Below are positions 3,001-39,414 of a stretch of DNA of 64,000 nucleotides, in pieces. Both the position numbers and the translations under genes were made by a program. Each line of letters opens with the position of its first letter. The stretch's first letter is position 1. The notes beneath the pieces were generated by a model. It worked only from the letters and a program-made list of their open reading frames with translations. It was not told the DNA's origin and ran no database searches. The stretch is from a virus. The stretch covers positions 1,064 through 65,063 of IMG/VR virus record IMGVR_UViG_3300048911_000270, one strand, 5' to 3'.

Positions 3001-3852
3001 GGTCTGGTCGACGGCCTTCTTGTGGGCGACGGCCTGCTTGACCGCGCCCATCGTGGCCCCGGCGTAGATGCCCATGGCGCCACCGGCCGCGACACCGAAC
3101 GAGGCGGCGGCAGCGGTCGCCCCGCCCAGCAGGTTCGTCAGCGCGGGGAGCTGAGGCAGGACCGAGGCGATGAGCCCTGGAAGGCTCATGAGGGAACCCA
3201 GGTGCAGGTTCAGCGGGTCCTTGATCTTGCGGACCCTGCGCCGCGAGGTGTCGTCATCGTCGTCCGTGTCGCCGTCGCCGAGGTCCGGGACGCGCGGGGC
3301 ATCCGGGTCCGGGTCGGGAGTCGGGTCTCCCCCGCCGCGCCGGGCAGGACTGACACGCGGGTTGGGCCCGGTCGCGGTGCGGATCGTGATGGGGGCAGCG
3401 GCTGCGGCGCGGATGGCGGCGATGGAGGCTGCGGCGTTGCGGGTGTCCACGTCGGCGTGGATCGTGAGCGTCCGGGCGCTCATGGCGGTGATCGCTGCAT
3501 CTAAGGACGCGAGCGTCGCCAGGGCGGCCGTGTCGTCCACCTGGGCCCGGACGGTGATGGCCGTGTGGTTCAGGTGGTCGGCCTGGGCCTGTAACGAGGT
3601 GAGCTGTGCGGAGAGATCGGCGTAGCCCGATAAGGACGCGGTGACGGAGATGTCCCTAAGGCTGCGTAACTCCTCCTTCAAGGCGGTGATCTTGGCCTTG
3701 GCTTCGGTGTCGTCCAGCTCGATTTTCGGGGTGTACTTCTGCTTGGCGAACTCCTCGGCGTCCTTCTTGGCCTGCTGAAGGTCGCGGTTGAACTCGGAGC
3801 GGTCTAATCGAAGGTTGGCTTCGATGCTGCCAGCATTGTAAGAACCCGACAC
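1..3852 (-). CDS. Tape measure protein with C-terminal SLT lytic transglycosylase domain (runs off the window edge)
   Basis: Translated by hand from GTG at 3852 (RBS GAGGAG): MSGSYNAGSIEANLRLDRSEF..., long Ala/Trp-rich helical repeats, then SLT motif LITRESGWNPKAIN...GLAQTIPSTF...ANVAAAIRYI. Absent from the ORF track because there is no stop in the window. Lies downstream of the tail chaperone. Confidence 0.93.
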   Translation of the reverse strand, partial: MSGSYNAGSIEANLRLDRSEFNRDLQQAKKDAEEFAKQKYTPKIELDDTEAKAKITALKEELRSLRDISVTASLSGYADLSAQLTSLQAQADHLNHTAITVRAQVDDTAALATLASLDAAITAMSARTLTIHADVDTRNAAASIAAIRAAAAAPITIRTATGPNPRVSPARRGGGDPTPDPDPDAPRVPDLGDGDTDDDDDTSRRRVRKIKDPLNLHLGSLMSLPGLIASVLPQLPALTNLLGGATAAAASFGVAAGGAMGIYAGATMGAVKQAVAHKKAVDQTQIALEKAQERLAGTTAGTEAYKKALKDVTEAEKAHKKAIDDLTPAEKKFNNSLEQTKGAWQSFIGATSKYTLAPVTTVIQGAALALPKFIPLIKEMAPVIQDVADGLKNWMSGDGLTRFVTFLRTYGIPIVRNTILAFRGFATAGGALVRAFGPVAEKMSGYFKTLGDRASAWGKNGGAERFRERFMQSWHQLKPIFLGLITTVKHIWDILDGTGTSNGHAIADVLDTINLAISNLKPAAVKALGEIFQSISDVAIELAPVIGITSKAIVDIVNALPPGTIRLIADAMIAWKLAIIGWNAAVAVWGFLVTVIEAVETAWIALTIAWGLSPIGVIVTAIVALIAVVVVIATKTTWFQTIWSYTWAAIKTASLWVWNNALKPMFQGIWTGLQEVGKWGMWLWTHALKPAWEATAAGALWLWHTIKPALVFIGDAFVFLAKIWWTVYSTIFKVVFILLEAAVKALWLFVLKPVFGWIMAGWHALGAGFRWVYNHLLKPAWEAFASAAVTTYNHTLGPVFGWIGDGFKAMGNGFRWVYNHIIKPAWDAVAGAAKALWTQYIKPIFQGIQDWIGEKWRAIKDNVFAPMKTFFTKTIPGWGTTMKKGLIDAFDSAWKGIQKVWDNVKKAIGTPIYWVAKYVWNDAIYAIMDKIASFVNTKNPLGRINTDKIPHFAQGGAVPHTPGSTPGKDSVNAVLMPDEHVFTREDVAAMGGHERVKAFRSALHGGRSVQGANSSGRFGLGGWIEDAGSSMKSAASKGLDALENAALGALAVVVDPVINKANSTIDKLVPGSGDWSNLAAGIMKKPLKEIKDFVHSEDKKVSFHARNGTIPTGQHLAVINAALKAAKVPPPGTLAAWQAGLNTLITRESGWNPKAINLTDSNAKAGHPSQGLAQTIPSTFNAYVPSSLRGRGITDPVANVAAAIRYIVATYGNISNVQQANASKAPKGYWTGTDGAAPGLAWVGERGPELVNFHGGETVYNNRDSLRMASMGSLHGYASGTRHQ

Positions 3853-3963
3853 TGGCCCGACCTCTCCTCGCCCGAGTACGCATGTCGGATATGTAGCCGA
3901 CGCTCCAAGATTACCTTTTGGGGGTCGGGCAGTATAGAGCGATCTCCCGTTTATGAAAATGCT

Positions 3964-3998
3964 CGTGGGGTCGGAGCTATTTCAGCTCCGACCCCACG
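3964..3998. terminator. Stem-loop between the tail chaperone and tape measure genes
   Basis: CGTGGGGTCGGAGCT-atttc-AGCTCCGACCCCACG perfect inverted repeat. Confidence 0.5.
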
Positions 3999-4023
3999 AT
4001 CTCCACCCGGCACGGCGAGTCTT

Positions 4024-4269
4024 TTAGACCCCTGGAGGAAGGTCGTCCCAGCTCGTCAATTCGACGGCGCCTCCCGACGAACCACCGTCGTCGTCCTCCC
4101 CATGGAACTCAGGGTCCTGGTTTAGTTGTTCGACGTACATCCGCTGGTCGTGCCAGGGAAGTGCGTCCCACTGCTGCCGGGTGAGGCCGAGGATTTTCAG
4201 CACCGTGTAATACAACCGGCGCTGGTCCTCTCCTCCGGTCAGTCCGTCGTAGCGGCCATCAATTTTCCC
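4024..4269 (-). CDS. Tail assembly chaperone -1 frameshift extension
   Basis: The -1 frame after G GGA AAA reads PGKIDGRYDG...LGLTRQQWDALPWHDQRMY...; classic G/GT arrangement. Confidence 0.8.
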   Translation of the reverse strand, partial: GKIDGRYDGLTGGEDQRRLYYTVLKILGLTRQQWDALPWHDQRMYVEQLNQDPEFHGEDDDGGSSGGAVELTSWDDLPPGV

Positions 4270-4628
4270 GGGTTGAACTGCTCCTGGAGCCACCGGGAGA
4301 AGAGAACCTTGTGGCGCCAGGGAAGCTGGGCCAGGATCTCGACGGACGGGGTGTTCTTGCACAGACGCGCAGTGAGGGCGTCCATCTTCTTCTCCAGCTC
4401 ATCGGCGCGGTCGGAGATCTTGTCCATCTCCTCGTCCGATAACTGCTCGGGGTCGATGTCCTGGACGTCCTTGTACTCGCGGACGACGGCGAGGACGGCC
4501 TTGCGGTAGCCCGCCATGGCCTGCTGGGACGGCTCGGGAACCGTGCCCTTGGCCTCGGGGCCCTCCACGAAACCGGTGAAGTCGTAGTCCAGCGGCTCGA
4601 CGGCCGTTGCTGCGGTGAAACCTGCCAT
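4239..4628 (-). CDS. Tail assembly chaperone (short form)
   Basis: MAGFTAATAVEPLDYDF...QFNPGKLMAATTD, between major tail and tape measure; contains slippery GGGAAAA at 4269-4263. Confidence 0.85.
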   Translation of the reverse strand: MAGFTAATAVEPLDYDFTGFVEGPEAKGTVPEPSQQAMAGYRKAVLAVVREYKDVQDIDPEQLSDEEMDKISDRADELEKKMDALTARLCKNTPSVEILAQLPWRHKVLFSRWLQEQFNPGKLMAATTD

Positions 4629-12093: not shown

Positions 12094-13902
12094 TTATCGG
12101 CGTTCCAGGGAAATCCAACTGCCTGCGCCCAGCGTCGCCGTCTGCCCTGCGGTTCCCGAGGCGAACGTGACCGTCAGGTTCCCGGCCGTTCCGGTAGTGA
12201 TCAAGGACCCCGTGAGCATCGCCGTCTTGTTGGCGCCGGACCCGGACCATGTGTCGATCGAGGAGATGAGCGGGAAGCTCGTCGCCACCGAGTCGCCCCA
12301 GATCATCGTGGCGCCGGACGGCCCCGTGAAGCCGTGGGTGAAGGACACACCCGCCGGGGACTGGATGACCAGGCAGCCGCGCAGCAGGTACGTGGTGTTC
12401 GCCTCCACGGCGATGACGAGCTGCGTGGAGGCGGTCTGCGCGGTCACGGTGACGTTCTGGGCCGTGGACGCCAGCGCGGACAGGGTGTTCTGGATCACGA
12501 TGATCGCGCCGTTGGCCTGGCGCACCTTCAGGGTGTTGTTCTCGCAGTACATGACGGCGGCATTGGGGTTGGCGTTGGGGACCGTGGTGGCGTTCGTGAA
12601 CGCGATCAGTGCGCCGTTGCCTCCGCCGAACGATCCGGACGACCCCATGCGCAGGTTCGCCAACTGGCTGGTTCCGGAGGCCGTGAACGACGTGCCGGTG
12701 AAAGTCGTGCCCGTGAGGCCGCCGGTCAGGGTGCCGCCTGAGAGCTGGAGGTAGCGGGCGTCGCCCAGCGTCTGGGTCAGATAGCGGGCGTCGTTCGGGT
12801 CACCCGTGGTGCCACCGCCGATGTTGCCCCGGACCAGGCTGCCCGCGCCTGCGAGTTCCAGCGGGCCCTGCGCCAGGGTGCCGGAGACGATCAGGGTGTT
12901 GCCCTGGATGTTGTTGCTGCCGGTTCCTCCGGTGCTCTCCTCGCGGATGAGGGAGCGCCCGGCGCCGTTGGTCGGGGCCGAGCGGATGGTGTTGCCCTGG
13001 ACGACGTTGTTGATCGCACCGGACTCCAGGCGGATGCCGGAGGCGGTTCCGGCCGTGCCGAGGGCGCCGACGCCGAAGATCGTGTTGGAGGTGGCAGTGC
13101 AGTTGGGGGCGGCGATGAAGACGGCGTCCCCTCCGAGGCTGTCGAAGGTGCAGCCCAGGAGCTGTGTGCTGCCGACGGTCTGGATGCGGATGCCCTTGGC
13201 GGCGTTGGTGCCGCCGCCTACGAAGTTGCATTCCGAGACGGTCTGGAAACCGGCCAGGTCCAGGATGTGCACGGCGGTTCCGGTGCCGGTGCCGCCGGAG
13301 CCTCCGAGGGTTTCGAAGTCGCAGCCGATGATCTGGTTCTCGGTGCTGGACGACATGGTCAGGCCGCGTCCCGGGCCGGTCGAGCCGGTGGAGTTGTCGA
13401 AGAGGCAGCCGATGACGCGGTTGTTGTGGCCGAAGCTGCCGCCGGACATGCCGCCGAGGTACAGGGCGTCGTCGCGGCAGGCGGTGAAGTGGACGTTGTC
13501 GAACCGGCAGGCGATGGCTCCCAGGGCGTTGATGCCGCCGGAGCTGCCGAGGGTTCCCTGCGAGAGGCAGTTGCCGTCGATCGTCAGGTCCCGCATGGTA
13601 ATCCGGGTGTCGGCCCCGGTCATCTGGAAGATGTAGCAGTTCTTGTTGGCCTTGAGCTGAATGCGGGTGCCCCATCCGGCGCCGAAGATGCTCAGGCCCT
13701 CCCCGGCCGGGATGCTGATCGTGGAGGAGACCGCGTACGTACCGGCGGGTAAGTAGACGGAGGTGTGCGCGGAGGACGCGTCGTTGATCGCGGCCTGGAG
13801 TGCGGCCGTGTCGTCGGCCACCCCGTCGCCGATCGCTCCGTATGCGGGGCTCTTGACGTTGATGCCAGCGGACGCCCAGGGGCCCTCGATCATGTAAGCC
13901 AT
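12094..13902 (-). CDS. Tailspike/depolymerase-like right-handed beta-helix protein (pectate lyase 3-like)
   Basis: NVKSPAYGAIGDGVADDTAALQAAIN...VYLPAGTY followed by Gly/Asn/Thr-rich beta-helix repeats; start taken as ATG 13902. Confidence 0.8.
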   Translation of the reverse strand: MAYMIEGPWASAGINVKSPAYGAIGDGVADDTAALQAAINDASSAHTSVYLPAGTYAVSSTISIPAGEGLSIFGAGWGTRIQLKANKNCYIFQMTGADTRITMRDLTIDGNCLSQGTLGSSGGINALGAIACRFDNVHFTACRDDALYLGGMSGGSFGHNNRVIGCLFDNSTGSTGPGRGLTMSSSTENQIIGCDFETLGGSGGTGTGTAVHILDLAGFQTVSECNFVGGGTNAAKGIRIQTVGSTQLLGCTFDSLGGDAVFIAAPNCTATSNTIFGVGALGTAGTASGIRLESGAINNVVQGNTIRSAPTNGAGRSLIREESTGGTGSNNIQGNTLIVSGTLAQGPLELAGAGSLVRGNIGGGTTGDPNDARYLTQTLGDARYLQLSGGTLTGGLTGTTFTGTSFTASGTSQLANLRMGSSGSFGGGNGALIAFTNATTVPNANPNAAVMYCENNTLKVRQANGAIIVIQNTLSALASTAQNVTVTAQTASTQLVIAVEANTTYLLRGCLVIQSPAGVSFTHGFTGPSGATMIWGDSVATSFPLISSIDTWSGSGANKTAMLTGSLITTGTAGNLTVTFASGTAGQTATLGAGSWISLERR

Positions 13903-14086
13903 CAGGCACCCCGCCCGGGTAAGTCGCTTGGCATCCCGTTTACCCCCACTAGATAGATCCATCTCATGTTACGGGTTCAATGCCCGATTTCCTACGCCTG
14001 GAAGGCTTCCCTCCAGCTTCTTGCAGCGTTGCTTGCAGTGCTGGCTGTAGAGGGCTCGGGCAGGGGTCGGCAGCCGTCCACGAGGC

Positions 14087-14360
14087 GGTTACCCCATTCT
14101 GAAAGATGAGGTCGCCCCCTCCCCCGGGCGTGTGCGCGCGTACACGTACATGGATCACATCTCAAAACAGGGTAACGAGGTAACTCACATGCATTTACGC
14201 AGGTCAGAGCACATATTTGGGTTACTTTTTACGAGGTAACTTAGGGGTAACTAGAGGGTAACCAGGGCTGTTCCATGATCAACTAGCCAAGACTTTGTCC
14301 TGACATTTGAGCGACCAAGATCAAGTTACTTCCCTGGTTACCCCGCCGAAGTAACCGTGG
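14087..14360. other. Origin-like iteron element, copy A
   Basis: Ten GTAAC/GTTAC repeats, AT-rich patches and CGCAGGTCAGAG; homologous to 47515-47792. Confidence 0.6.
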
Positions 14361-14456
14361 ACACCTTGTGATCACGTGTTAGGGTGTGCCCCTGAAACGT
14401 AAGAACCCCCGACCGGCGGTCACCAGTCGGGGGGCTACTGAGAGGGCAAGCTCTCT

Positions 14457-16253
14457 ATGACGGAGAATATCTCCCCTACCACCCCGGCAGCAACCACCCT
14501 CGCCGCCACCCCGGTTACGAAAGCCACCCTCGACACGGGCTGGCTGATGACCCGGGACAACGTCGTCCACGTGATCACGCGTGGACGCGACCCCCAGGAC
14601 TCCTCCCAGTACATCCTGGACGAAGAACCCTACGGTGATTTCGACATCGTGGCACTCGGCATCATCGCCGACGACAAGACCGAGCGCCGGGCCTGGGACG
14701 TCGTGATCGTCCGGCAGAGCGACGGCAAGGAGCTGCGCCGCATCCTGGACGAGAAAACCCTCGCGGACAGCAAGAGGCTGACGCTGTGGCTGACCTCGGC
14801 CGGAGTCTCCGTGATGTGCCCCGACGGCGCGCTCGGCGGCGGTGTTGCCCAGGGCGTGCGCCTGCTGCGCTACATCAACGCGCAGAAGCCGCCGGAGGCC
14901 ACGATCGTGGACCAGGTGGGCTACCACCCCGACCTGAACGTTTTCGTGGCCCACGAGGGCGTCCTGCGCCCGGGAGACACCGCGTTCGACCCCAAGGCGC
15001 CCTACCGTCCCTCTGCGCAGCTCTCCACGTCCGGGGACGCCCCCTTCGCCTACGGGTTCGCGCCGAAGGGTCTGGAGGAGGTCCGGGACGTGCTGGCGCA
15101 GGTGCTGACGTTCCATGACGAAACGCCCCTGGCGGTCGCTGCGTCGTGGATGGTGATGTCCCTGGTGCAGTCCGCGATCATCCAGCACACGTCGCATTTT
15201 CCCGTGATGGCCATCGAGGCGCCGTCGGGGTCGGGCAAGACCACGGGTGCCCTGTCGATGCTCCGGCAGTTGCTCACGGGCAACACCTCCGGGCCCTCCC
15301 AGGGAACGATCCCCGACGTCCGCCAGAAGATCGCGTCCACCCGGTCCGGATTCGTCCACATTGACGACCTGGACGACCCGAAAGCCGTGTTCGAGATGCT
15401 GCGGCTGTCGACGGCCGACGGCACCAAGATGATGCGCTCGCACGCCTCGGGGTTCATGGCCTCCCAGCACTCCCAGCTCACCGGAACGATTCTGCTGACC
15501 GGCGAGTACCTGGGCCTGCGGTCCCAGAAGGCGCTGGTGGACCGGATTCTGATGCTGGAGCTGACGGACCCCACCAACCGCAAGTCCCAGATCCCCGGCC
15601 GGGAGCACATCTCCCAGTGGGCCGACGTGACGGCCCTGTCCCGCCGCTACCCGGGCACGGTCGTTGCGGAGATCCTGCGCTGGCTGGACGACATCGAAGC
15701 GCTGCTGGACGAGGTCAAGCCGTGCCCGGGACGTCTGGGTGACAAGTACGCGACGGTGCTGGCCGGGGCCTGCTTCGTGGATCACCTGCTCGGCGACTCC
15801 AAGGCGTGGATCAAAAAGGGTGATACGTACGCGCAGGTGATGGCCTGGGTCGAAGAGGACATGCAGTTCGCGAACTCCTGGGACAACGCCCTGACGACCG
15901 AAATCCTCCCCTGGGCCCTGCACGAGTACGGCGGCTGGGCCGGGGTGGACATCAACGCCTACGAACCGGTCAAGATCTCCGGCAAGACCTTCGTCACCGC
16001 GCCCGGCTTCTACAAGGAGGACGGGGACAACGGGGAGGGCATCTTCATTCACCCGCGCACCCTCGCCGACGCCTGGCGGGCCTACGTCGGTCACAAGGCC
16101 GAGGACCGTGTCCACTCGTCCGCCGCCATCGTCGCGCAGGCCAAGATCGCCGGGTTCGTGGAGAAGGTCATCAAGGTCCCCGGCGGCAAGTCCGTCAAGG
16201 GCTGGATCCTCCACGGCGACAAGGTGGAGATCATCCGCCAGCGCGCAAGCTGA
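14457..16253 (+). CDS. Replication helicase/ATPase (primase-associated type)
   Basis: 598 aa; Walker A APSGSGKTT, Walker B FVHIDD; adjacent to the iteron element. Confidence 0.65.
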   Translation: MTENISPTTPAATTLAATPVTKATLDTGWLMTRDNVVHVITRGRDPQDSSQYILDEEPYGDFDIVALGIIADDKTERRAWDVVIVRQSDGKELRRILDEKTLADSKRLTLWLTSAGVSVMCPDGALGGGVAQGVRLLRYINAQKPPEATIVDQVGYHPDLNVFVAHEGVLRPGDTAFDPKAPYRPSAQLSTSGDAPFAYGFAPKGLEEVRDVLAQVLTFHDETPLAVAASWMVMSLVQSAIIQHTSHFPVMAIEAPSGSGKTTGALSMLRQLLTGNTSGPSQGTIPDVRQKIASTRSGFVHIDDLDDPKAVFEMLRLSTADGTKMMRSHASGFMASQHSQLTGTILLTGEYLGLRSQKALVDRILMLELTDPTNRKSQIPGREHISQWADVTALSRRYPGTVVAEILRWLDDIEALLDEVKPCPGRLGDKYATVLAGACFVDHLLGDSKAWIKKGDTYAQVMAWVEEDMQFANSWDNALTTEILPWALHEYGGWAGVDINAYEPVKISGKTFVTAPGFYKEDGDNGEGIFIHPRTLADAWRAYVGHKAEDRVHSSAAIVAQAKIAGFVEKVIKVPGGKSVKGWILHGDKVEIIRQRAS

Positions 16254-16266
16254 CCCCGAGAACGCG

Positions 16267-16298
16267 AGACCCCCGCCGGACGTATCCGGCGGGGGTCT
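16267..16298. terminator. Bidirectional terminator between convergent genes
   Basis: AGACCCCCGCCGGA-cgta-TCCGGCGGGGGTCT. Confidence 0.7.
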
Positions 16299-16310
16299 TC
16301 TGCTGCAAGG

Positions 16311-16532
16311 TCAGGAAGCGGGGTTCCGCTTCGCCAGCCGCTCGCGGACCGCCTTCTTCACCATGTCCGTGCGGCCCCGGCGCTGACGGGCCTCCTGCTC
16401 CCGGGCGAACGCCGCACGCTCCTCGGCGGTCACCGCCACCGGGATCACCTGCATCTGCATGCGCTCCTGGACCTGGGCGATGTGCTCGTCCAGCCCTGCC
16501 TGGTCGTTGTCGTTGCTCTCGGGACCGCTCAT
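16311..16532 (-). CDS. Small ribbon-helix-helix-like protein
   Basis: VIPVAVTAEERAAF...RTDMVKKAVRERL pattern resembling CopG/Arc. Confidence 0.45.
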   Translation of the reverse strand: MSGPESNDNDQAGLDEHIAQVQERMQMQVIPVAVTAEERAAFAREQEARQRRGRTDMVKKAVRERLAKRNPAS

Positions 16533-16583
16533 GAACCGTCTCCTAGTAGTTCCTGCCAGTGTAGAACCGCTTGCCTGTTCGGA

Positions 16584-19500
16584 CTAATCCCATTCGTCGG
16601 TGGGGACGATCTCCACGACGATGTAGCGCTTGCCGCTGTACGGCTTGGTTCCGTCCGGCGGGGACGCCTGGTCCGAGACCACCCGGTACTTGGTGCCGCG
16701 CGGCAGCAGGATCTCCTGCTCGTGGGAGAACTTGGATCCCGTCGCGTAGTTGGCGTCGATGACCTTGTGCCCCTTGGGGATGCGGACTTCCATCCACACG
16801 TTGCCGCTGAAGGCGTTCTTGTCCTTGGCCGTCGAACCGTACGCCAGGTCCTGGTAGACGTTGCCGGGGTCCATCGGCGGCGGGAAGTCCGGGAACTGGC
16901 CGTTGGTGCCCATCTTGCGGACCGTGACGAGGTCGTGGGCCAGCGGCGGCGCCTGCCGGAACGCGTCGTCCATGTGCTTGATGGTGTCGTCCCAGTCACC
17001 GCCCGTGGCCCCGACCGGCGGCGTGATCATGGTGCCGTCGTAGTCGAAGTGGCCGCGAAGCTGACCGTTGATCTCCGAGTGCTCGTGACCCGTGTACGTG
17101 TACACGGCGGACGACGCCTTGCCCTTGGGCTTCCAGCCGTTGCCGATGTCCACACCGTTGGTCGCGGCCGTGTACCCGGCGGCGTGTGCCCCGGCGAACT
17201 GCGTCTTGGTGTGCGCCAGGACCGCGTCTTCGTCGCCCGCCTCGGCGGCCGTCATCCCCTTGGGGACCGCCTTGGCCGGGTCGAAGGACGCCGGATCGAA
17301 CGGCGAGCTGTAGTGCGCGTCCCAGTCCTTCTTCGCCTGCTTGTACAGGGCGATCTGCGCCGGGGTCGCGTTCGGGCCGTGGGCCTGGTCGTACAGCTTC
17401 TTCAGCAGTACCGCGTTCGCCTTCTTGGTGATACCCAGGCCGGTGTACTTGACCTCCGGAGCCGTCACCACGTCGGGCGAAAGACCCTGGCTCTTGAGGT
17501 ACGTCTTCGGCGAGTTCTGGGCCTGCGCGATGTCCAGCGTGGACGCGCCCGCCTTCTCGGCGGCTTCCTTGAGGTCGATGGACTTGTCATAGTCCCAGTG
17601 GTCACTGTTCTGCGGCAGGTTGTGCTCGGCCAGGGCCTTGAGCGCCGCCTGCTTGGCGGAGAGCGAACCGGTACCGGACGGTGCCGCCGCAGCCGCAGCC
17701 GTCGCCGGGTTGTTCTGCTTGTCCAGTTCGGCCTGGGCCTCGGTGTTCCAGTGCTTGTTGATGACGCCCTGCTTGAAGTCAGCGAACGCCTGCGGGTTCT
17801 CGTTCTTCCACTTGGCGAACTCCTCCTTCGTGAAGTTCTTGCCGCCGTAGTTCTTGGCCATCCACTCGGCGGCGAGCTTGGCCTCCTTCTGCGTCTTGAA
17901 CTTGTGCGAGCCCATCTTCATGCCGTCGGCCTGCGTCACCGACCAGCCGGAGCCACCGAGGGCCTTGTGGACCACGAGGTTCTTGGGACCGGCCACGCCC
18001 TGGGACATGTGCGTGTTGCCGTCGGCGTCCTTGACCCCGTGCTCCACCTTGGACCACTTGGCCTTCGGCTTGAACGGGTCCGTCTTCGGGCCGGACGGGG
18101 CCGCCGGAGCCGACGCGTCCGCCTCAGGGGCCTTCTTCTCCGCCGGAGCAGCCGCGCTCTCCTTGGCCTTCAGCGCCTTCAGCGTCTCGTCCGACTTGTA
18201 GTACGCCGCGTGGATCTCGTCGGGGGTGGCCCCGGCGTTGATGGCGGCGTTCTCCAGCTTCTCGGACGTCTGGTGGTTCCAGTCGGCGGTGTTGTCGTCG
18301 TGCTCGTGCGCGGCGAGCGCCTTGAGCGCCTTCTCCTTCTCCGACAGGCCCTGGGGCGCCGGAGTAGGTGCAGAGGACTTGGAGACCTTGTCCAGGAACG
18401 CCTTCGGGTTCTGGATGGCGGCGATGACTTCCTTGGGGTCCGCGCCCAGGTCGATGGCCTTCTGCTTCAGGGTCGTGTATTCGCCGGGCTCCCACTCTTC
18501 CCCGGAGGCCATCTTCTCGGCCATGGTCTTGATCACGGCGTCCTTCGCCGACAGACCGGAGTCCTTCGCAGAAGGCGACGGGGCCGAGGGGCTGTTGGCG
18601 AGGAAGGCGTCCGGGTCCTTGACCACGGAGGTGATTTCCGCCTTCGTGGCGCCCGCCGCGAGAGCCTTCGACTTTGCGACCTTGTAGTCGGTCTCGTTCC
18701 AGTCGTTGTCATCGATCTTCATCATCTCGGCGATGGCCTTGAGCGCGGCGTCCTTCTCCGCCGAACCGCCGGAACCGGCCTCCGGGGCATCGGCAGCCTT
18801 GGCCGCCTTCTGCGCCGGAGCAGCGCCCTGCTTGCCCTTGTCGGGCAGGTCGTCGTAGAGCTTCTGGAAGTCCTTGCCCAGGCTGTTCTTGTGGGCAACG
18901 ATCTTGTCGAGGAACTTCTCCTCGGTGTCGACGCCGCCCGGGAACTTGTGGCCGCTCGCGAGGGCCTGCTTGGCGTACGGGGCGAAGAGCCGCTTGAACT
19001 CCTCGTCCGGCATGTCCTGGATTGCCTTGATCGTTTTGGCGAACTCGTTGTCCCCGGACGGGTCCGGGAGCTGGATCTTGCCTTCCTTGGCAGCCTGCCA
19101 CAGGGCGGGGTACACGGCCGAGTGCGCGTTCGGGCCGTACGTGGTCAGCGGGTCGCCCTTGGACTTGCCGCCGTCGCCCTTGTACGGGTCGCCGTTGGAG
19201 GCGCCCACGGTGTACTTGAACGCCTGGCCCTGGTCGATCGACATGAGGCCGGTCGACGGGGACTTGATCCACTGGCCGTTGTGGGAGTCCTGGTTGCCGG
19301 TGGCGTAGTCCAGCACCTGGTGCTGGAGCATCTTCATGATGTCCTCGGGGGGCATCTTCGCGGCCATGTCGGCGTTGAACTTGTAGCCCGGGAACGCGTC
19401 CTCGGCGCCGGGGATCATGCCCTGGAGGTGACCGTCCTTGGTCTTCACGAACACCGGGGTCGGCAGGCCGACCTTGCGGTGCAGCGCGGCGACGGCGGGG

Positions 19501-21677
19501 TCAAGGCTGCGGGAGTACTCGTCCGTCTTCGCCAGCCACAGGTTCCCGTCCTCGTCCTTCATCAGCTTGCTGCCGTGGGAACCGAGCGTCTTGCCGGTGT
19601 ACGTCAGCTTGCCGACCGGCTTGAGAACCTTGCCGTCGTCGGCCGCGTCGACCTTCTTGACCGGAGCGGACGGAGCCTCGGCGGCCTTCTTGGTCGCGGC
19701 GGCGTCGGCCGCGTCACCGTGGTGCTGGACCAGGTTCTTGAACTTGTTGACGGCCCAGTCCTTGGGCTCGTCCTTGTCCTGCTCCGCCTTGAGGGCCTTC
19801 GCAGCCGCCTGACCGGCCGCCTGGTGGTCCTTGTGGTCCCCGGTGATCTCGGCGATGGACGACAGCGCGTTCGCCTTCATGGCGGGGCTGTCCGCCTTGT
19901 CGGCGAGTTCCGCGACCTTCTTGTAGTTCTCGATCGCCTTGTCTTTGTCCCCGGCCGTCAGGGCGTCGTCAGCGGCGTTGAACGCCTGCCCGGCCTGCTG
20001 GAGCGCCTGCGACTTCTCCGACTCGGCCTTGGCGGCAGCAGTGGCCTGCTCGCCGTGCTGGGTCGCCTTGGCCATGTGGCCCTGGGCGGCCTCCTTGTGG
20101 TCCGCCGCCAGGCCCTGGAAGCCCGCGTCCAAGGCGGCCTTCTCCGCGTTGGAGTGCAGCAGGGCCGCTTCCAGGTGCTTGGCGTTCAGCGTGTCGTCGC
20201 TGGCCTTGGCGTAGGTCGCCTCGTGCACCTCGGACGTCTTGGCGTGCGCCTTCTTGCCGTGGGCGTCGTACGCCTGCATCTTCGCGAGCGCTTCGGCGTT
20301 CTTCTTGTCGACCTCGGCGGCCTTGGCCTTGTACGAGGCGGCGTTCGCCTTGTGGTCCTCGGCCTCGTCGTGCAGACCGGCGGCCTTCGCAGCCTGGTGC
20401 GCCTTCTCGTACTTGGCGGCGGCGTCCTTGAACGCGGTCGACGCCGAACCCGAGTCCCCCAGCGCGTGGCCCTTGTTGGCGGCCTCGTCGGCGGCCTTGG
20501 CGTGCTTGGCGATCTCGGCCTGGGCCGCCTTCTGCTTGGCCTCGTGCTCGTCGTGCTGCTTCTGGAGCCCGGCCGCGATCTCCGCGTGCTTGGCCTCGTG
20601 CTGCTTGTGCTCGTTGACGGACTCGTCGTTGCCGATCTGCCCGTGCGCGTTCGCAGCCTGCCCGTGCGCCTGGGCGGCCTGGTTGTGCGCGTGCGCCTGC
20701 GCGGCCAGCGGGGTGTCACCCTCCTCGCTGGCAATCGACGCGCTCTTGGACTTCTTGTAGGCGCCGTCCGACATGGTGGCGGCGGCCTTGTCCAGTGAGT
20801 CGTGCGTCTTCTGCTGGTTCTCGGCGATCTTCTCGTGCTTGGCCACCGCTCCCGCGTGGGCCTCGCCGACGAACTTGTTCCCGGCCTCCTCGTTGGCGTG
20901 CTGCGCGTTCAGGTGCGCGGCAGCAGCCTTCGTGTGCAGCTCGGCGGCCTGCTTCGGCGTGTGGTTGCCGCCCTTGATCGAGGCGGTGAGTTCGTTCGCC
21001 TCGGCCGTGAGCTTGGTCGCCTTGGCCTTGGCGTCCGCCAGCTTCTTGGCCGCCGCAGCCTTCTCGGCCTCCAGCGCCTTGGCCGCGTCCTCCTTCGCAC
21101 CCTGCTCCAGCTTCGTCGCCTTCGAGGCGTGGATCGCGGAGTGCGCGGAGTGCGTGAGGACACCCGACTTCAGGCCGTCCTTGCCCATGCCCTGGAAGTG
21201 GTGGGCGGCGTCGGCGTGCTGAGTCGCCGCGACCTTGTGGGCCGCCGCCAGAACGGCCTTGGAAGCGCCGGACTCTTCGAGCTTGTGCACCATGTTGGTG
21301 GCGCGCTCGGCCTTCTGGACGGCTGCCTTCGCCGCTTCCTGCTTGGCCGCGACACCCGCCGCGCCCTTCTTGACCTCGGCCTCCCAGTCCGCCTTGGAGG
21401 CGTACCGGTTGACGGCCTTGAAGGAGATCTTGCCGTCGGCGCCCTTGACGAAGTGGCCGGTGGTGTGACCGCCGGAGATGTGGCCGTGCTGACGGGCGAG
21501 ACCGCCGCCGGACAGACCACGGGAGGGGATCAGGGGGTTGATCAAGATCCATCCGTGGCGGTATCTAAATGCAAGGGCGCCAGCGGGATTTTTCGAGAAA
21601 TCTAAGGTGTGAGCGTCAACAACCCTCACATTCTTAGGTAACACCCCGACGAACGCTAACTCATATTCCACGTTCAC
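16584..21677 (-). CDS. Giant head-cargo protein: His/Ala-rich region, HipA/PI3-4K-like kinase, four helical repeats, C-terminal ADP-ribosyltransferase
   Basis: Kinase: LWLAK...VLDYATGNQDSHNGQW...SIDQGQAF. ART (R-S-E): YTYTG...INGQLR...VTVRKM...YGSTA...EQEILLPRGTKYRV. Confidence 0.78.
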   Translation of the reverse strand: MNVEYELAFVGVLPKNVRVVDAHTLDFSKNPAGALAFRYRHGWILINPLIPSRGLSGGGLARQHGHISGGHTTGHFVKGADGKISFKAVNRYASKADWEAEVKKGAAGVAAKQEAAKAAVQKAERATNMVHKLEESGASKAVLAAAHKVAATQHADAAHHFQGMGKDGLKSGVLTHSAHSAIHASKATKLEQGAKEDAAKALEAEKAAAAKKLADAKAKATKLTAEANELTASIKGGNHTPKQAAELHTKAAAAHLNAQHANEEAGNKFVGEAHAGAVAKHEKIAENQQKTHDSLDKAAATMSDGAYKKSKSASIASEEGDTPLAAQAHAHNQAAQAHGQAANAHGQIGNDESVNEHKQHEAKHAEIAAGLQKQHDEHEAKQKAAQAEIAKHAKAADEAANKGHALGDSGSASTAFKDAAAKYEKAHQAAKAAGLHDEAEDHKANAASYKAKAAEVDKKNAEALAKMQAYDAHGKKAHAKTSEVHEATYAKASDDTLNAKHLEAALLHSNAEKAALDAGFQGLAADHKEAAQGHMAKATQHGEQATAAAKAESEKSQALQQAGQAFNAADDALTAGDKDKAIENYKKVAELADKADSPAMKANALSSIAEITGDHKDHQAAGQAAAKALKAEQDKDEPKDWAVNKFKNLVQHHGDAADAAATKKAAEAPSAPVKKVDAADDGKVLKPVGKLTYTGKTLGSHGSKLMKDEDGNLWLAKTDEYSRSLDPAVAALHRKVGLPTPVFVKTKDGHLQGMIPGAEDAFPGYKFNADMAAKMPPEDIMKMLQHQVLDYATGNQDSHNGQWIKSPSTGLMSIDQGQAFKYTVGASNGDPYKGDGGKSKGDPLTTYGPNAHSAVYPALWQAAKEGKIQLPDPSGDNEFAKTIKAIQDMPDEEFKRLFAPYAKQALASGHKFPGGVDTEEKFLDKIVAHKNSLGKDFQKLYDDLPDKGKQGAAPAQKAAKAADAPEAGSGGSAEKDAALKAIAEMMKIDDNDWNETDYKVAKSKALAAGATKAEITSVVKDPDAFLANSPSAPSPSAKDSGLSAKDAVIKTMAEKMASGEEWEPGEYTTLKQKAIDLGADPKEVIAAIQNPKAFLDKVSKSSAPTPAPQGLSEKEKALKALAAHEHDDNTADWNHQTSEKLENAAINAGATPDEIHAAYYKSDETLKALKAKESAAAPAEKKAPEADASAPAAPSGPKTDPFKPKAKWSKVEHGVKDADGNTHMSQGVAGPKNLVVHKALGGSGWSVTQADGMKMGSHKFKTQKEAKLAAEWMAKNYGGKNFTKEEFAKWKNENPQAFADFKQGVINKHWNTEAQAELDKQNNPATAAAAAAPSGTGSLSAKQAALKALAEHNLPQNSDHWDYDKSIDLKEAAEKAGASTLDIAQAQNSPKTYLKSQGLSPDVVTAPEVKYTGLGITKKANAVLLKKLYDQAHGPNATPAQIALYKQAKKDWDAHYSSPFDPASFDPAKAVPKGMTAAEAGDEDAVLAHTKTQFAGAHAAGYTAATNGVDIGNGWKPKGKASSAVYTYTGHEHSEINGQLRGHFDYDGTMITPPVGATGGDWDDTIKHMDDAFRQAPPLAHDLVTVRKMGTNGQFPDFPPPMDPGNVYQDLAYGSTAKDKNAFSGNVWMEVRIPKGHKVIDANYATGSKFSHEQEILLPRGTKYRVVSDQASPPDGTKPYSGKRYIVVEIVPTDEWD

Positions 21678-36551: not shown

Positions 36552-37058
36552 GTGCCTGACCGCCCCGACTGGGACGCCTATTTTCTCGGAATCGCGCGAG
36601 CTGTAGCGGCCCGTGCCGACTGCACCCGCCGTCAGGTGGGCGCCGTGATCGTGGACGAAGATCACCGCATCATCGTCACCGGGTACAACGGAAGCCCGCC
36701 CGGCGGCCTGTCCTGCCTCAAGGGGGAATGCCCTCGCGGACGGCACTACAAGCAGGCCGACAAGTGGTGCCATGTGCACAACGAAACCGACTGCTCTTGC
36801 GCGGATTGGCGTTGCGCCTGCGGTGAGTACTGGCCATGTACGCAAGCCGCACAACCCGGCAGTTCCTATGACACCGGGGCCGGGGCATGCGTTTCGGTAC
36901 ATGCCGAGGCGAATGCACTGCTTTTCGCCCGCGCTTCCGTGAAAGGGGCCACGCTGTATTGCACGGATGCCCCGTGCGGAGGATGTTCTCGTCTCATCCG
37001 GGGCGCCGGGATAGCCCGGGTGATCATCCCAGGAGCCTCACCGGTTCCAGCCAACTGA
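36552..37058 (+). CDS. dCMP deaminase family protein
   Basis: RPDWDAYFL...CTRRQVGAVIV...TGYNG...HAEANA...PCGGC, with a Cys-rich insert. Confidence 0.9.
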   Translation: MPDRPDWDAYFLGIARAVAARADCTRRQVGAVIVDEDHRIIVTGYNGSPPGGLSCLKGECPRGRHYKQADKWCHVHNETDCSCADWRCACGEYWPCTQAAQPGSSYDTGAGACVSVHAEANALLFARASVKGATLYCTDAPCGGCSRLIRGAGIARVIIPGASPVPAN

Positions 37059-37070
37059 ATACCGAGCAGT

Positions 37071-37116
37071 AACGCCGATAGCCGTCCACCTCGTGTGTGC
37101 GGCTATCGGCGTTTTT
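37071..37116 (+). terminator. Intrinsic terminator
   Basis: AACGCCGATAGCCG...CGGCTATCGGCGTT followed by TTT. Confidence 0.7.
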
Positions 37117-37225
37117 GTCGGAATTGACGATTCCTCAGGACACGCCTAACCAGCGCATTTTAACGGCATGTCAGACAGGGAGTGCTAGACTAGCACCACT
37201 TTAGCCACCTGAAAGGACCGCCGAA

Positions 37226-38773
37226 ATGAAGATCGACTCGCCCCCGCCGGAACGCGAAGTCCCCTCTCTGGGGCGCTTCGAAAAGGTGCTCCTCGGGGTG
37301 GTGACCGTGGGGGCGATCACGGGTGGCGGAATCGGTCTGTACTCGTCTGTTGACTCCGTGTCCGCTGCTGCGGCGCGGTGGGGATTCGACCCGCCGATCA
37401 TTCTCCCGGTGGCCCTGGATATTTCCATTCCGGTGTTCTCGCTCGTCAACCTGCTGCTGATCCGGCTCGATATGCCGCTCGCCTGGGTGCGCATGGTTCC
37501 GTGGGCGTTGACGGCTGTGACGGTCTACATGAACGTCACGGCAGCGGGTGACGCTGTGGCCGCCCAGATCGGTCACGGCGCGCTGCCGATGCTGTGGGTT
37601 CTGCTCTCCGAGGTTGCCGCGCACGTGTACCGGACCCGCATCGGAGCGGTGACCGGGAAGCGGATGGATAAGGTCCGGAAGTCGAGGTGGCTTCTGGCGC
37701 CGATCTCCACCTGGACCCTGTGGCGGCGGATGGTCCTGTGGGAGGTCATCTCTTACCGGGTGGGCCTGCTGCTGGAGCGGAACCGGAAGCTGATGCGAGC
37801 CGATCTTCAGGACCAGTTCGGCAAGGGCTGGCGGAGGAAGATCACGGAGCGCCAGAAGGTGCTGCTCCGTCTTGGCGAACTGGCGCCCGCAGAGCTGTCG
37901 GCGGAGTTGGCGGCAGACGAACTGGCGGCAGTTCCTGGCGGCGAACTGGCGACAGGAGCGGAGACCCCTTCCGTTGTTGGCGGCGAGCTGGCGGCGCGAA
38001 CTGGCGGCAAGGACACCCACGAACTGGCGGCTGGAACTGGCGCCAACTTGGCGACAGGAAGCGAACTGGCGGCAGCAGCTTCTACCGCCAAGAGCGCCCC
38101 CGCCAACTGGGAGAAGCGCCAGGAAGACCTGGCGACAACTCGCGGAACTGGCGACAAGAAGCCTCTGACCAGCACTTTCGCTGTTGGCGGCGACAAGAAG
38201 CGGGCCGTGACCGTCTCTATTGGCGATCTCCCGGAGGAGGCGGCGGACCCCGGCTTCATCGACTTCCTGGCGGTTGGCGACGAACTGGCGGCAGCCGCTC
38301 TTGGCGCCAACAACGGAGCTGGCGACAGCTCGGACGGAGCTGGCGACAGCTCGGACGGAGCTGGCGACAACTGGGCCGGAGCTGTCGATGAGCCCGTCGG
38401 AGCTGGCGCCAACAGCGGACGAACTGGCGACAGGAGCGACAGCGGAACTGGCGACAGCTCGGCCGCCAACAGCGGAACTGGCGACAGCTCGGGAACTGGC
38501 GACAGCTCTTCTGGCGGCGCTTCTGGCGACAGCTCGGAGGTGTCGCCAACTGGCGGCAAGAGGGGCAAGCGGCGCCCGATGGCGGAGTGGATCGAACTGG
38601 CGAGCCCGATCTTCGACGCCGAGATGCGGCGCCGGAAGAGGCAGCCGAGCGGACCCGAGTTCGCCACCGCGATCGAGGAGGCGGGGTACGGGGCAGTGTC
38701 CGACTCGACCGCCAAGAACATCAGGACGGCGATCCTGGACCAGCGGGCCAAGGCCCTCACCGCGTCCCGCTGA
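37226..38773 (+). CDS. DUF2637-like membrane protein (plasmid Spd-like) with repetitive middle and C-terminal HTH-like region
   Basis: Four hydrophobic helices...HGALPMLWVLLSE...RWLLAPISTWTLWRRMVLW; ELAA/TGDS repeats; C-terminal RQPSGPEFATAIEEAGYG.VSDSTAKNIR. Confidence 0.75.
   Translation: MKIDSPPPEREVPSLGRFEKVLLGVVTVGAITGGGIGLYSSVDSVSAAAARWGFDPPIILPVALDISIPVFSLVNLLLIRLDMPLAWVRMVPWALTAVTVYMNVTAAGDAVAAQIGHGALPMLWVLLSEVAAHVYRTRIGAVTGKRMDKVRKSRWLLAPISTWTLWRRMVLWEVISYRVGLLLERNRKLMRADLQDQFGKGWRRKITERQKVLLRLGELAPAELSAELAADELAAVPGGELATGAETPSVVGGELAARTGGKDTHELAAGTGANLATGSELAAAASTAKSAPANWEKRQEDLATTRGTGDKKPLTSTFAVGGDKKRAVTVSIGDLPEEAADPGFIDFLAVGDELAAAALGANNGAGDSSDGAGDSSDGAGDNWAGAVDEPVGAGANSGRTGDRSDSGTGDSSAANSGTGDSSGTGDSSSGGASGDSSEVSPTGGKRGKRRPMAEWIELASPIFDAEMRRRKRQPSGPEFATAIEEAGYGAVSDSTAKNIRTAILDQRAKALTASR
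37872..38602. repeat. Intragenic array of YTGGCG / GAACTGGCG repeats
   Basis: Roughly 40 copies, one orientation, read in more than one frame (GAA CTG GCG = ELA; ACT GGC GAC = TGD). Confidence 0.8.
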
Positions 38774-38847
38774 CCGCCCGCAGCACGCACGAAGAGCCCG
38801 TCCCCAAGGCAAGTGGGGACGGGCTCTTCTGTGTCAGCTTACCGCCG

Positions 38848-39414
38848 TCAGCGGAGCCGCTGGTACAACGACCCCGGGGTGCAGTAACCCTCCCAACGGG
38901 AATCCGAGAACAGCTTGATTCCCGCCCGCCGGTACGCGTTGTCACAAAGCTGGGAACAGATCTGGTGGCCCGTCGCGGAAACGAATTCCCGCAATCCCGG
39001 AATGGGCAGACGTAACCGGTGTGCCGCAATTGCGGCGTAATCCACGAAGGAGTACTCGACGCCCTCGAAAGAGCGGGCCACGTCACAGATTCGCTTCCGG
39101 TCCAAATCTGTGAGACCGGCCGGGGAAACGTACAGGACGTCGTAGTCGTCGTAGTCGGACAGCGGCACGATCTGCGCGCCGCCCGGCATTGCCTCGATCA
39201 GCATCCCGTCCTCCAGGACGATGAACGCGTGCTCGAAGTGGGAGAAGCCGTCTCCGTTCAGCCACTGCCCTATGCGTATGAGGGCGCCCACGAAGCCGCT
39301 GATGCTGGTTAAGCCGATATCCCCCGGCTGGGGTGAGTTGTGAATCAAAGCGACCTCCCGGGCGCGTAGCAGGATTTTCTGTTCGGCGGCCGGAGCCGTC
39401 TCTGTGGAAGGCAT
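38848..39414 (-). CDS. Permuted papain-like amidase (YiiX/YebB-like)
   Basis: QPGDI...SHFEHAFI...IEA...YSF...ICSQLC; catalytic His precedes Cys. Confidence 0.78.
   Translation of the reverse strand: MPSTETAPAAEQKILLRAREVALIHNSPQPGDIGLTSISGFVGALIRIGQWLNGDGFSHFEHAFIVLEDGMLIEAMPGGAQIVPLSDYDDYDVLYVSPAGLTDLDRKRICDVARSFEGVEYSFVDYAAIAAHRLRLPIPGLREFVSATGHQICSQLCDNAYRRAGIKLFSDSRWEGYCTPGSLYQRLR

Follow-up and report, generated by a model that had tools for sequence, protein, structure and literature searches.

Within the 64-kb stretch of DNA examined here (the window), which is part of an 89.5-kb viral record (IMGVR_UViG_3300048911_000270) from a soil phage of Streptomyces-type bacteria and with an estimated completeness of ~70%, a single gene encodes a predicted membrane protein with a DNA-binding-type tail and carries, inside its own coding sequence, a dense array of the short word YTGGCG. 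The spelling of this array is constrained at the level of the DNA, and relatives of the gene that encode a different tail carry a different word. For the latter reason, the gene and its array look like a self-contained, undescribed device for holding mobile DNA at the cell membrane. The parts of the gene are located as follows.

37226..38773, plus strand: gene for an SpdB2-like membrane protein of 515 amino acids with a DNA-binding-type tail (Pfam, homologues and model).
37226..37870, plus strand: N-terminal module, amino acids 1-215 (Pfam and AlphaFold2 (AF2) model).
37872..38607, plus strand: array of 33 same-strand YTGGCG sites, consensus GARCTGGCGRCA, in 736 bp, encoding amino acids 216-461.
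38037..38046, unstranded: palindromic full site CTGGCGCCAA, with further copies at 38301-38310 and 38403-38412.
38313..38462, plus strand: sub-array of about seven 21-bp tandem units with one site each (repeat analysis).
38531..38770, plus strand: C-terminal type-1 domain, amino acids 436-515, with the basic patch GGKRGKRR followed by three helices (models and profile).

A first-pass annotation of the sequence had described about 40 YTGGCG repeats in the same orientation between 37872 and 38602. The array itself stands, but the number does not: 33 sites are present on the plus strand in this interval, and 35 across the whole gene. Their density within the array is 45 per kb; the rest of the window has 1.1 per kb on this strand. 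Fourteen of the sites read GAACTGGCG. The 12-mer GARCTGGCGRCA has 13 exact copies, all of them in the array and none elsewhere in the window on either strand, and 15 of the 16 copies of RARCTGGCGRC in the whole 89.5-kb record fall there as well. The repeats lie in different reading frames, as had been claimed. Frame 0 holds 12 sites, mostly read as E-L-A (with D-L-A, N-L-A and F-L-A once each), and frame 1 holds 21, read as x-G-D, x-G-G or x-G-A, whereas frame 2, which would encode Trp-Arg, holds none.

The further claim that selection acts on the DNA rather than on the protein is borne out by comparison with synonymous spellings, which the observed count in two frames far exceeds. Recoding the protein with phage codon usage gives 4.8 +/- 1.9 sites (maximum 12 in 2000 trials), and a shuffle of the synonymous codons already present in the gene yields 8.5 +/- 2.4 (at most 18 in 2000 trials), against the 35 observed. 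All 12 Leu-Ala pairs of the linker are spelled YTG GCG, compared with 28% genome-wide, and all 21 frame-1 sites require an NNT codon, third-position T accounting for 5.2% of codons genome-wide. Rare NNT and GAA codons are chosen wherever the array word requires them. Because the spelling exceeds that of synonymous recodings and employs rare codons, the constraint on the array acts on nucleotides and not on amino acids. Slippage or duplication contributes to its growth, since part of the array is a 21-bp tandem repeat. The spacing of the sites is irregular and conservation ends beyond ~12 bp; a search for helical phasing returned only the 3-bp coding period and no 10.5-bp signal. The palindromic form of the word spans 14 bp around a TGGC core (type AACTGGCGCCAGTT). 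The sites were also considered as targets of AdpA, whose consensus is TGGCSNGWWY, and this candidate was rejected because TGGCGRCAGC mismatches two specified positions of that consensus.

The architecture of the encoded protein agrees with the earlier description of an N-terminal DUF2637-like membrane domain and a C-terminal helix-turn-helix (HTH)-like segment. Pfam DUF2637 (PF10935) matches amino acids 32-175 with 44.4 bits against a curated cut-off of 22.8 (E 2e-11), and homologues are annotated DUF2637 throughout. Four long helices in the AF2 model (17-51, 56-80, 85-107 and 111-143) are predicted to be the transmembrane helices of this domain; in a simple hydropathy scan, only the first two or three score clearly. 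Two basic juxtamembrane helices follow, with 22 Lys or Arg residues in amino acids 135-215, and because of this segment the rest of the protein is predicted to be cytoplasmic. It begins with a disordered acidic linker of 225 residues (predicted local distance difference test (pLDDT) score below 50 for amino acids 222-446), with which the array coincides in the full-length model. The same model ends in a three-helix domain at amino acids 452-513 with a pLDDT of 92-94. Modeled alone, the tail has helices at positions 24-42, 48-57 and 65-85 of the domain model, with a pLDDT of 88-95 over the helical part, and forms a predicted tri-helical HTH-like bundle with a turn before the last (recognition) helix, which begins with an invariant STAKNIR stretch. 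The structural neighbors of the tail are mostly DNA-binding HTH or winged-helix domains with generic scores. A Foldseek search against PDB and Swiss-Prot gave nothing significant, VIA-align gave generic HTH neighbors only, and a profile search against PDB sequences gave no match. On these models the tail is assigned to the HTH fold class only.

A clue to the reader of the array comes from relatives in which the tail and the word change together. The loci compared, designated here by L-numbers, are uncultured or unstudied. Full-length homologues with 46-56% identity occur in the same gene neighborhood on metagenomic contigs. Five further phage homologues have the same tail as the window (type 1) and carry 10-27 copies of YTGGCG in two frames, each exceeding all 1000 synonymous permutations, in linkers that cannot be aligned with that of the window. 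An unbiased hexamer scan places CTGGCG, TGGCGA or GCGACA first in five of the six type-1 phage genes, the exception being the shortest gene. Three syntenic homologues end instead in a classical HTH tail of another kind (type 2) and have 0-1 copies of YTGGCG. Two of them have 29-30 copies of GGAAC in three frames and use GAA for 22/26 and 32/37 Glu codons, compared with 17-24% in neighboring genes, and the third has a weaker CGAACT array in a single frame. The median density of YTGGCG is 18.4 per kb in nine type-1 genes and 2.7 per kb in 20 other DUF2637 genes. Further words occur in other lineages, and each of the other-lineage arrays listed here pairs with a different C-terminal HTH.

L012, 10667-11185, and L013, 4630-5206: YGGAAC arrays of 29-30 copies in type-2 genes.
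L027 group (gene 3224-4324): CGCACC(CG) array of 11 copies in two frames.
L034 (gene 7-1044): array of the palindrome CCGTACGG, eight copies in two frames.

Thus, the suggestion that homologues might carry different words co-varying with the HTH is borne out by YTGGCG with type-1 tails and YGGAAC or CGAACT with type-2 tails, which favors the C-terminal domain as the reader of the array. The tail is also the sole component common to all array-bearing type-1 loci. Arrays are not universal in the DUF2637 family, since no comparable array was found in Gilgamesh gp79, VWB gp24, the gene of L008 on an actinomycete integrative and conjugative element (AICE) or several metagenomic DUF2637 genes. In VWB (L045, VWB 13476-19949), the word is scarce altogether: YTGGCG occurs 0 times on both strands in the 6.5 kb around the DUF2637 gene, compared with 12.4 +/- 3.6 expected, and CTGGCG occurs 21 times genome-wide, compared with 96 for a reversed control word. 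Restriction avoidance is one possibility for its cause. The type-1 word of the phages mostly starts with GAAC (GAACTGGCG, window 37877-38602), and GAAC is also contained in the type-2 word YGGAAC (L012, L013). The plasmid-type arrays described below are without GAAC, and its presence in both phage array types may be a trace of their common descent or a second contact.

The history of these genes indicates that array and tail travel together. In its membrane domain, the type-1 gene of L001 is 86% identical to type-2 L011 and 84% identical to type-2 L013, compared with 61-69% to most other type-1 genes, and a clade that mixes the two types has a support of 94/98 in the membrane-domain tree. From parA across its partner gene and ~450-550 nt into the DUF2637 gene, the DNA of L001 and L011 shares 77-92% identity; beyond this breakpoint, identity falls to ~50-65% with many gaps. 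Taken together, the tree and the breakpoint inside the gene show that the linker with its array and the tail were exchanged as one unit. The linker also appears to accept mobile domains. A T5orf172/MUG113 domain (GIY-YIG-related) lies in frame within it in L001 (10001-11584), L005 (10001-11464) and L009 (10001-11569), and as a separate gene just downstream in L011 (11232-11924), and it looks like a mobile domain landing in the linker.

The type-1 tail is found well beyond this group of phages. A search of 1.84 billion representative proteins with its profile yielded 55 clusters, and nearly all of the matches listed fall at the extreme C terminus or close to it. A Pfam scan of 48 tail-bearing proteins identified DUF2637 in 14 and T5orf172/MUG113 in 10. 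The tail is carried by a canonical DUF2637 protein adjoining a TraB gene with an FtsK-gamma domain (L040), by an SpdB_N-domain protein (L042) and by a Scy-like coiled-coil membrane protein (L041). It is also found at L046 and L047, with FtsK-family (TraB-like) genes close by. One of the membrane modules joined to the tail in these conjugative-element-like loci is of unknown type. An SpdB_N domain fused to the tail in protein P0097 is weakly similar to SpdB of plasmid pIJ101 (E 2e-4). The annotated association of such proteins with conjugative elements is supported by relatives beside TraB/FtsK genes on AICE and conjugative-element-like contigs.

Of five such plasmid-type (conjugative-element-like) genes, which have only the tail in common, four show clear enrichment of the core of the word, on either strand. 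L040 has 24 minus-strand and 9 plus-strand sites, and L042 has 15 and 5, respectively. The hexamer is thus mostly on the opposite strand in these two genes, read as CGCCAR (24 and 15 copies) in two frames; these numbers exceed those of all permutations and amount to 5-15 times the density in the flanks. In L046, the 10-bp palindrome YTGGCGCCAR (CTGGCGCCAA, as in the window) is present 21 times, against an expectation of 1.5 +/- 1.2, and the 11 kb of flanking DNA contains no copy; L047 has 13 + 13 copies of TTCTGGCGGC in both orientations. The arrays of L046 and L047 were predicted, on either strand, from linker peptides (TGAN/TGAK, RQ, TGD and LAT runs) before the DNA was inspected. Since the word occurs on either strand and as a palindrome, it is a double-stranded DNA signal rather than an RNA or peptide signal, and a reading of the repeat at the RNA or peptide level was rejected for the same reason. 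The palindrome suggests a dimeric reader with the half-site AACTGGC.

Considering these observations together, we place a probability of roughly 0.6 on the reading that the tail binds the array and that the array-bound, anchored protein ties the phage genome to the membrane. An SpdB2-like polytopic membrane protein would present a cytoplasmic C-terminal HTH that recognizes AACTGGC(G), either as a half-site or as the palindrome YTGGCGCCAR, and palindromic full sites are compatible with a dimeric tail. The 33 copies of the word would reside in the DNA that codes for the protein's own disordered linker, in two frames that yield harmless peptides, and many membrane-anchored copies of the protein would bind there and attach the genome to the cytoplasmic membrane. 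Because the site is in linker-coding DNA, protein and site would stay inseparable by recombination in mosaic genomes and could move between phages and plasmids as one cassette. A site within the protein's own gene may also favor action in cis, possibly because the protein inserts into the membrane while its gene is expressed nearby. Candidate purposes include the positioning or handing over of naked DNA at hyphal cross-walls, as in plasmid spreading; the segregation of an extrachromosomal prophage, in view of the tyrosine recombinase encoded here and the ParA of relatives; and the self-limitation of a pore-forming protein. Of the earlier claims, membrane anchoring and movement along hyphae are steps that we infer, as are the binding of the array by the tail and its purpose.

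Several known systems resemble parts of this arrangement. The membrane protein p16.7 of the Bacillus phage phi29 binds DNA through a cytoplasmic C-terminal domain and holds the phage genome at the membrane. By description, the likeness is to a phage membrane protein with a DNA-binding cytoplasmic C-terminal domain, as is proposed for the window's protein; p16.7 has one transmembrane helix, no sequence specificity and no cognate site array, in contrast to four predicted helices and an array here. SpdB2 of plasmid pSVH1 (Tiffert et al. 2007; Thoma et al. 2015, PMC4447253), compared here by description, is a four-transmembrane protein, as is predicted for the window's protein; it is oligomeric and pore-forming, binds double-stranded DNA nonspecifically, interacts with TraB and is needed for intramycelial spreading. 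Thoma et al. (2015) mention putative SpdB2 homologues on actinophages, and gp24 of VWB, an actinophage cited there, is a strong DUF2637 protein that matches the window's protein. No cis site is described for SpdB2, whereas the gene examined here contains a word array that changes with the tail. SpdB2 also has TraB as a partner, and none was found for the phage: a transfer or spread operon with TraB is present at the tail-sharing loci L040, L046 and L047 and was not found in the ~70% complete record of the window. SpdB of pIJ101 is not a DUF2637 protein and has no Pfam or BLASTP relation to the protein examined here; like SpdB, the SpdA and KilB proteins of pIJ101 lack any Pfam match and do not resemble it. 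SpdA2 of pIJ101 binds sps, a 12-bp palindrome present in two or three copies upstream of its own gene (Thoma et al. 2014, PMC4170104), and in this sense it pairs a spread-region protein with a specific short palindromic word at its own gene. However, SpdA2 is a small soluble protein with no membrane anchor, and sps is not an intragenic array.

Several considerations weigh against the anchoring reading. The support for it consists of sequence comparisons and structure models, from which binding is deduced, and structure searches with the tail gave generic matches (Foldseek E >= 0.4; VIA Z <= 5.7). The DNA binding reported for SpdB2 is nonspecific (PMC4447253). Two loci fit less well than the others, since the phage gene L010 has only 10 copies of the word and L041 is enriched weakly. 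The purpose of such an anchor is left unexplained in a phage in which no translocase was detected, and a partner protein could lie in the part of the record that is missing. Finally, the compared sequences are related, so that P values overstate their independence; module exchange and five different membrane modules nevertheless give several independent associations.

Alternatives to the anchoring reading must also be considered. The array could be a loading site, akin to clt and its TraB recognition sequences (TRS) or to FtsK orienting polar sequences (KOPS), for a TraB/FtsK-type translocase that the host or a resident conjugative element encodes; the tail would then dock onto the translocase instead of DNA, and the phage would hitchhike on DNA pumps of the plasmid or host. 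We consider this unlikely. Known clt loci (pSVH1, pJV1, pIJ101 and pWTY27) are clusters of 3-9 short direct repeats (5-9 bp) in 50-175 bp beside tra genes, read by TraB, and they likewise mark mobile DNA for a membrane-bound DNA-handling machine (PMC4447253, PMC3583192). The clt of pWTY27 extends 16 bp into traA, so that clt can overlap coding sequence (PMC3583192). Moreover, at several type-1 loci a TraB/FtsK gene lies downstream at a distance of 0.05-3 kb, SpdB2 and TraB interact in two-hybrid assays (PMC4447253), and the sites in the phages all have the same orientation, like polar translocase signals.

Despite these parallels, a TraB/FtsK-like translocase as the reader, which the first-pass annotation had offered as an option, is not supported. 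A short direct-repeat cluster is present, but no FtsK_SpoIIIE/TraB match was found in the 89.5-kb record or in a 97%-complete relative, and hence no cognate TraB with a winged-helix (FtsK-gamma-like) reader; nor was a homologue of the TraA-like neighbor gene of the plasmids found in the phage. The array has 33 sites in 736 bp, lies wholly inside a non-tra gene and tracks the encoded tail, and the 20-35 sites of such arrays far exceed those of known clt loci. The word in plasmid-type genes is on either or both strands or palindromic, unlike a polar signal, and the fold of the tail is HTH-like. In addition, the intergenic region that follows a TraA-like gene in L042 contains four copies of TGACACC (L042:2085-2162), at a distance of ~700 bp from the array of that locus. 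TGACACC is the clt word of plasmid pWTY27 and is protected by its TraA protein (PMC3583192), and a clt-like cluster that is separate from the array argues that array and clt differ.

A somewhat more doubtful alternative is that binding of the tail inside its own coding region serves self-control only, blocking transcription and capping the amount of a potentially toxic pore-forming protein without any positioning of DNA. SpdB2 forms pores, and the spread and kil genes of Streptomyces plasmids are tightly repressed (PMC4447253). Sites within the transcribed region would be well placed as a roadblock, and the co-variation of tail and word fits such a role equally well. One or two operators would suffice for autoregulation, however, and the retention of 20-35 sites in several lineages suggests the loading of many proteins. 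Self-control would also leave the membrane anchoring of a pure repressor without explanation.

It is improbable that the array serves as an iteron-type replication origin embedded in the coding sequence of the protein that binds it. In phage lambda, the binding sites of the O protein at ori-lambda lie within the inter-domain linker of its own gene. An origin inside the linker-coding part of an initiator gene is also known from phage P1, in which oriL is located inside the gene of its binding protein, RepL (PMC9948254). These systems share with the window sites in the protein's own coding sequence, so that protein and site are genetically inseparable, and the array lies in an early DNA-metabolism region, ~6 kb from a Prim-Pol gene. 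Nevertheless, lambda O and P1 RepL are initiators with an adjacent AT-rich unwinding region, whereas DUF2637 is a polytopic membrane domain. No 50-bp window with less than 50% GC is present in 37000-39000, which leaves no unwinding element, and no GC-skew turn occurs at the array. Furthermore, in AICEs and plasmids these genes group with transfer genes, apart from rep genes.

The first-pass annotation had also proposed that the array serves as a centromere, and its use by a ParA-type partition system appears very improbable. In favor of this proposal, the DUF2637 gene of L001, L005 and L011 is immediately preceded by genes for ParA and a 229-240-aa partner, which follow the deaminase gene. The partner has a conserved N-terminal peptide and a basic patch and, by reading of the alignment, may contain two ribbon-helix-helix-like units. 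Three to five conserved CGTGCTAAG repeats with 12-bp spacing lie upstream of parA (L001:7930-7995; L005:8075-8115; L011:8020-8065), and the genes are further preceded by a hairpin and a conserved promoter-like stretch. The whole looks like a candidate type-Ib partition cassette. By contrast, no ParA (CbiA), ParB_N or homologue of the partner was found in the ~70% complete record, in which the deaminase gene directly abuts the DUF2637 gene on its upstream side, and the cassette is also not present in L009, L010 and L012. It is found beside both tail types, hence beside different arrays, and the partner is 63-67% conserved between phages whose arrays differ completely. Because the cassette is present beside both tail types, missing from the window and three relatives, and equipped with its own repeats, it is a system separate from the YTGGCG array.

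Finally, the notion that slippage in a low-complexity linker generated the repeats neutrally, with no role for them as DNA, is strongly disfavored. Part of the array is a 21-bp tandem repeat, and disordered linkers tolerate expansions, but six phage genes whose linkers cannot be aligned retain the same core in two frames, and the core recurs on either strand in unrelated membrane-protein genes that have only the tail in common. The spacing is irregular, and nothing is conserved beyond ~12 bp.

The gene is set among early genes of the window, which has a GC content of 65.5%. These include genes for RNase H, an ADP-ribosylglycohydrolase, a dCMP deaminase, a GerE-type regulator and the tyrosine recombinase, a set characteristic of large Streptomyces-type phages. 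When the region was compared with phage records by megablast, no match was obtained, a single-protein scan of viral contigs detected no relative, and an alignment-based scan of viral contigs recovered three relatives only. Two further features flank the gene.

37182..37196, unstranded: palindrome GTGCTAGACTAGCAC, 15 bp, located 30 bp upstream of the start codon (candidate promoter/operator).
38791..38829, unstranded: hairpin with a perfect 15-bp stem and a 9-nt loop (dG -43.6 kcal/mol, z -6.3).

The palindrome GTGCTAGACTAGCAC resembles the CGTGCTAAG repeats in front of parA in the relatives, and the parA cassette itself was not found in the window; GTGCTARNCT has three matches in the window, compared with 0.3 expected. 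The hairpin lies between convergent genes, is common to both of their ends and is likely a bidirectional terminator. It was overlooked by a simple terminator scan, as no T-run follows the stem.

There are several reasons why this arrangement might deserve attention. The gene offers a clear case of a putative protein-binding array hidden in coding sequence, in the frames that are cheapest for the protein, and an array of this kind is invisible to gene annotation alone. A search of the accessible literature returned nothing on word arrays within genes of the DUF2637 or SpdB2 type or on any co-variation of such arrays with the tail. The spread of Streptomyces plasmids through septated mycelium has long been an open question. 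It is known to require Spd proteins, and no cis-acting spreading site or sequence-specific DNA contact of the membrane components is described in the papers that could be searched. A putative binding word that can be read directly off a membrane protein's own gene provides a direct experimental handle, in the form of defined oligonucleotides, synonymously recodable arrays, and natural swaps of tail plus array as specificity controls.

Because tailed phages carry the cassette without a detected translocase, the finding also raises the question of whether phage DNA is positioned, partitioned or spread inside hyphae. More tentatively, and as a possibility that we regard as well short of likely, DUF2637/SpdB-type proteins in general might be portable, self-addressed anchors, each lineage with a private word and its own exchangeable HTH tail, by which phages lacking a translocase would hold, segregate or pass on naked DNA in the mycelium. 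If true, this would amount to a capsid-independent step in the life of tailed phages.

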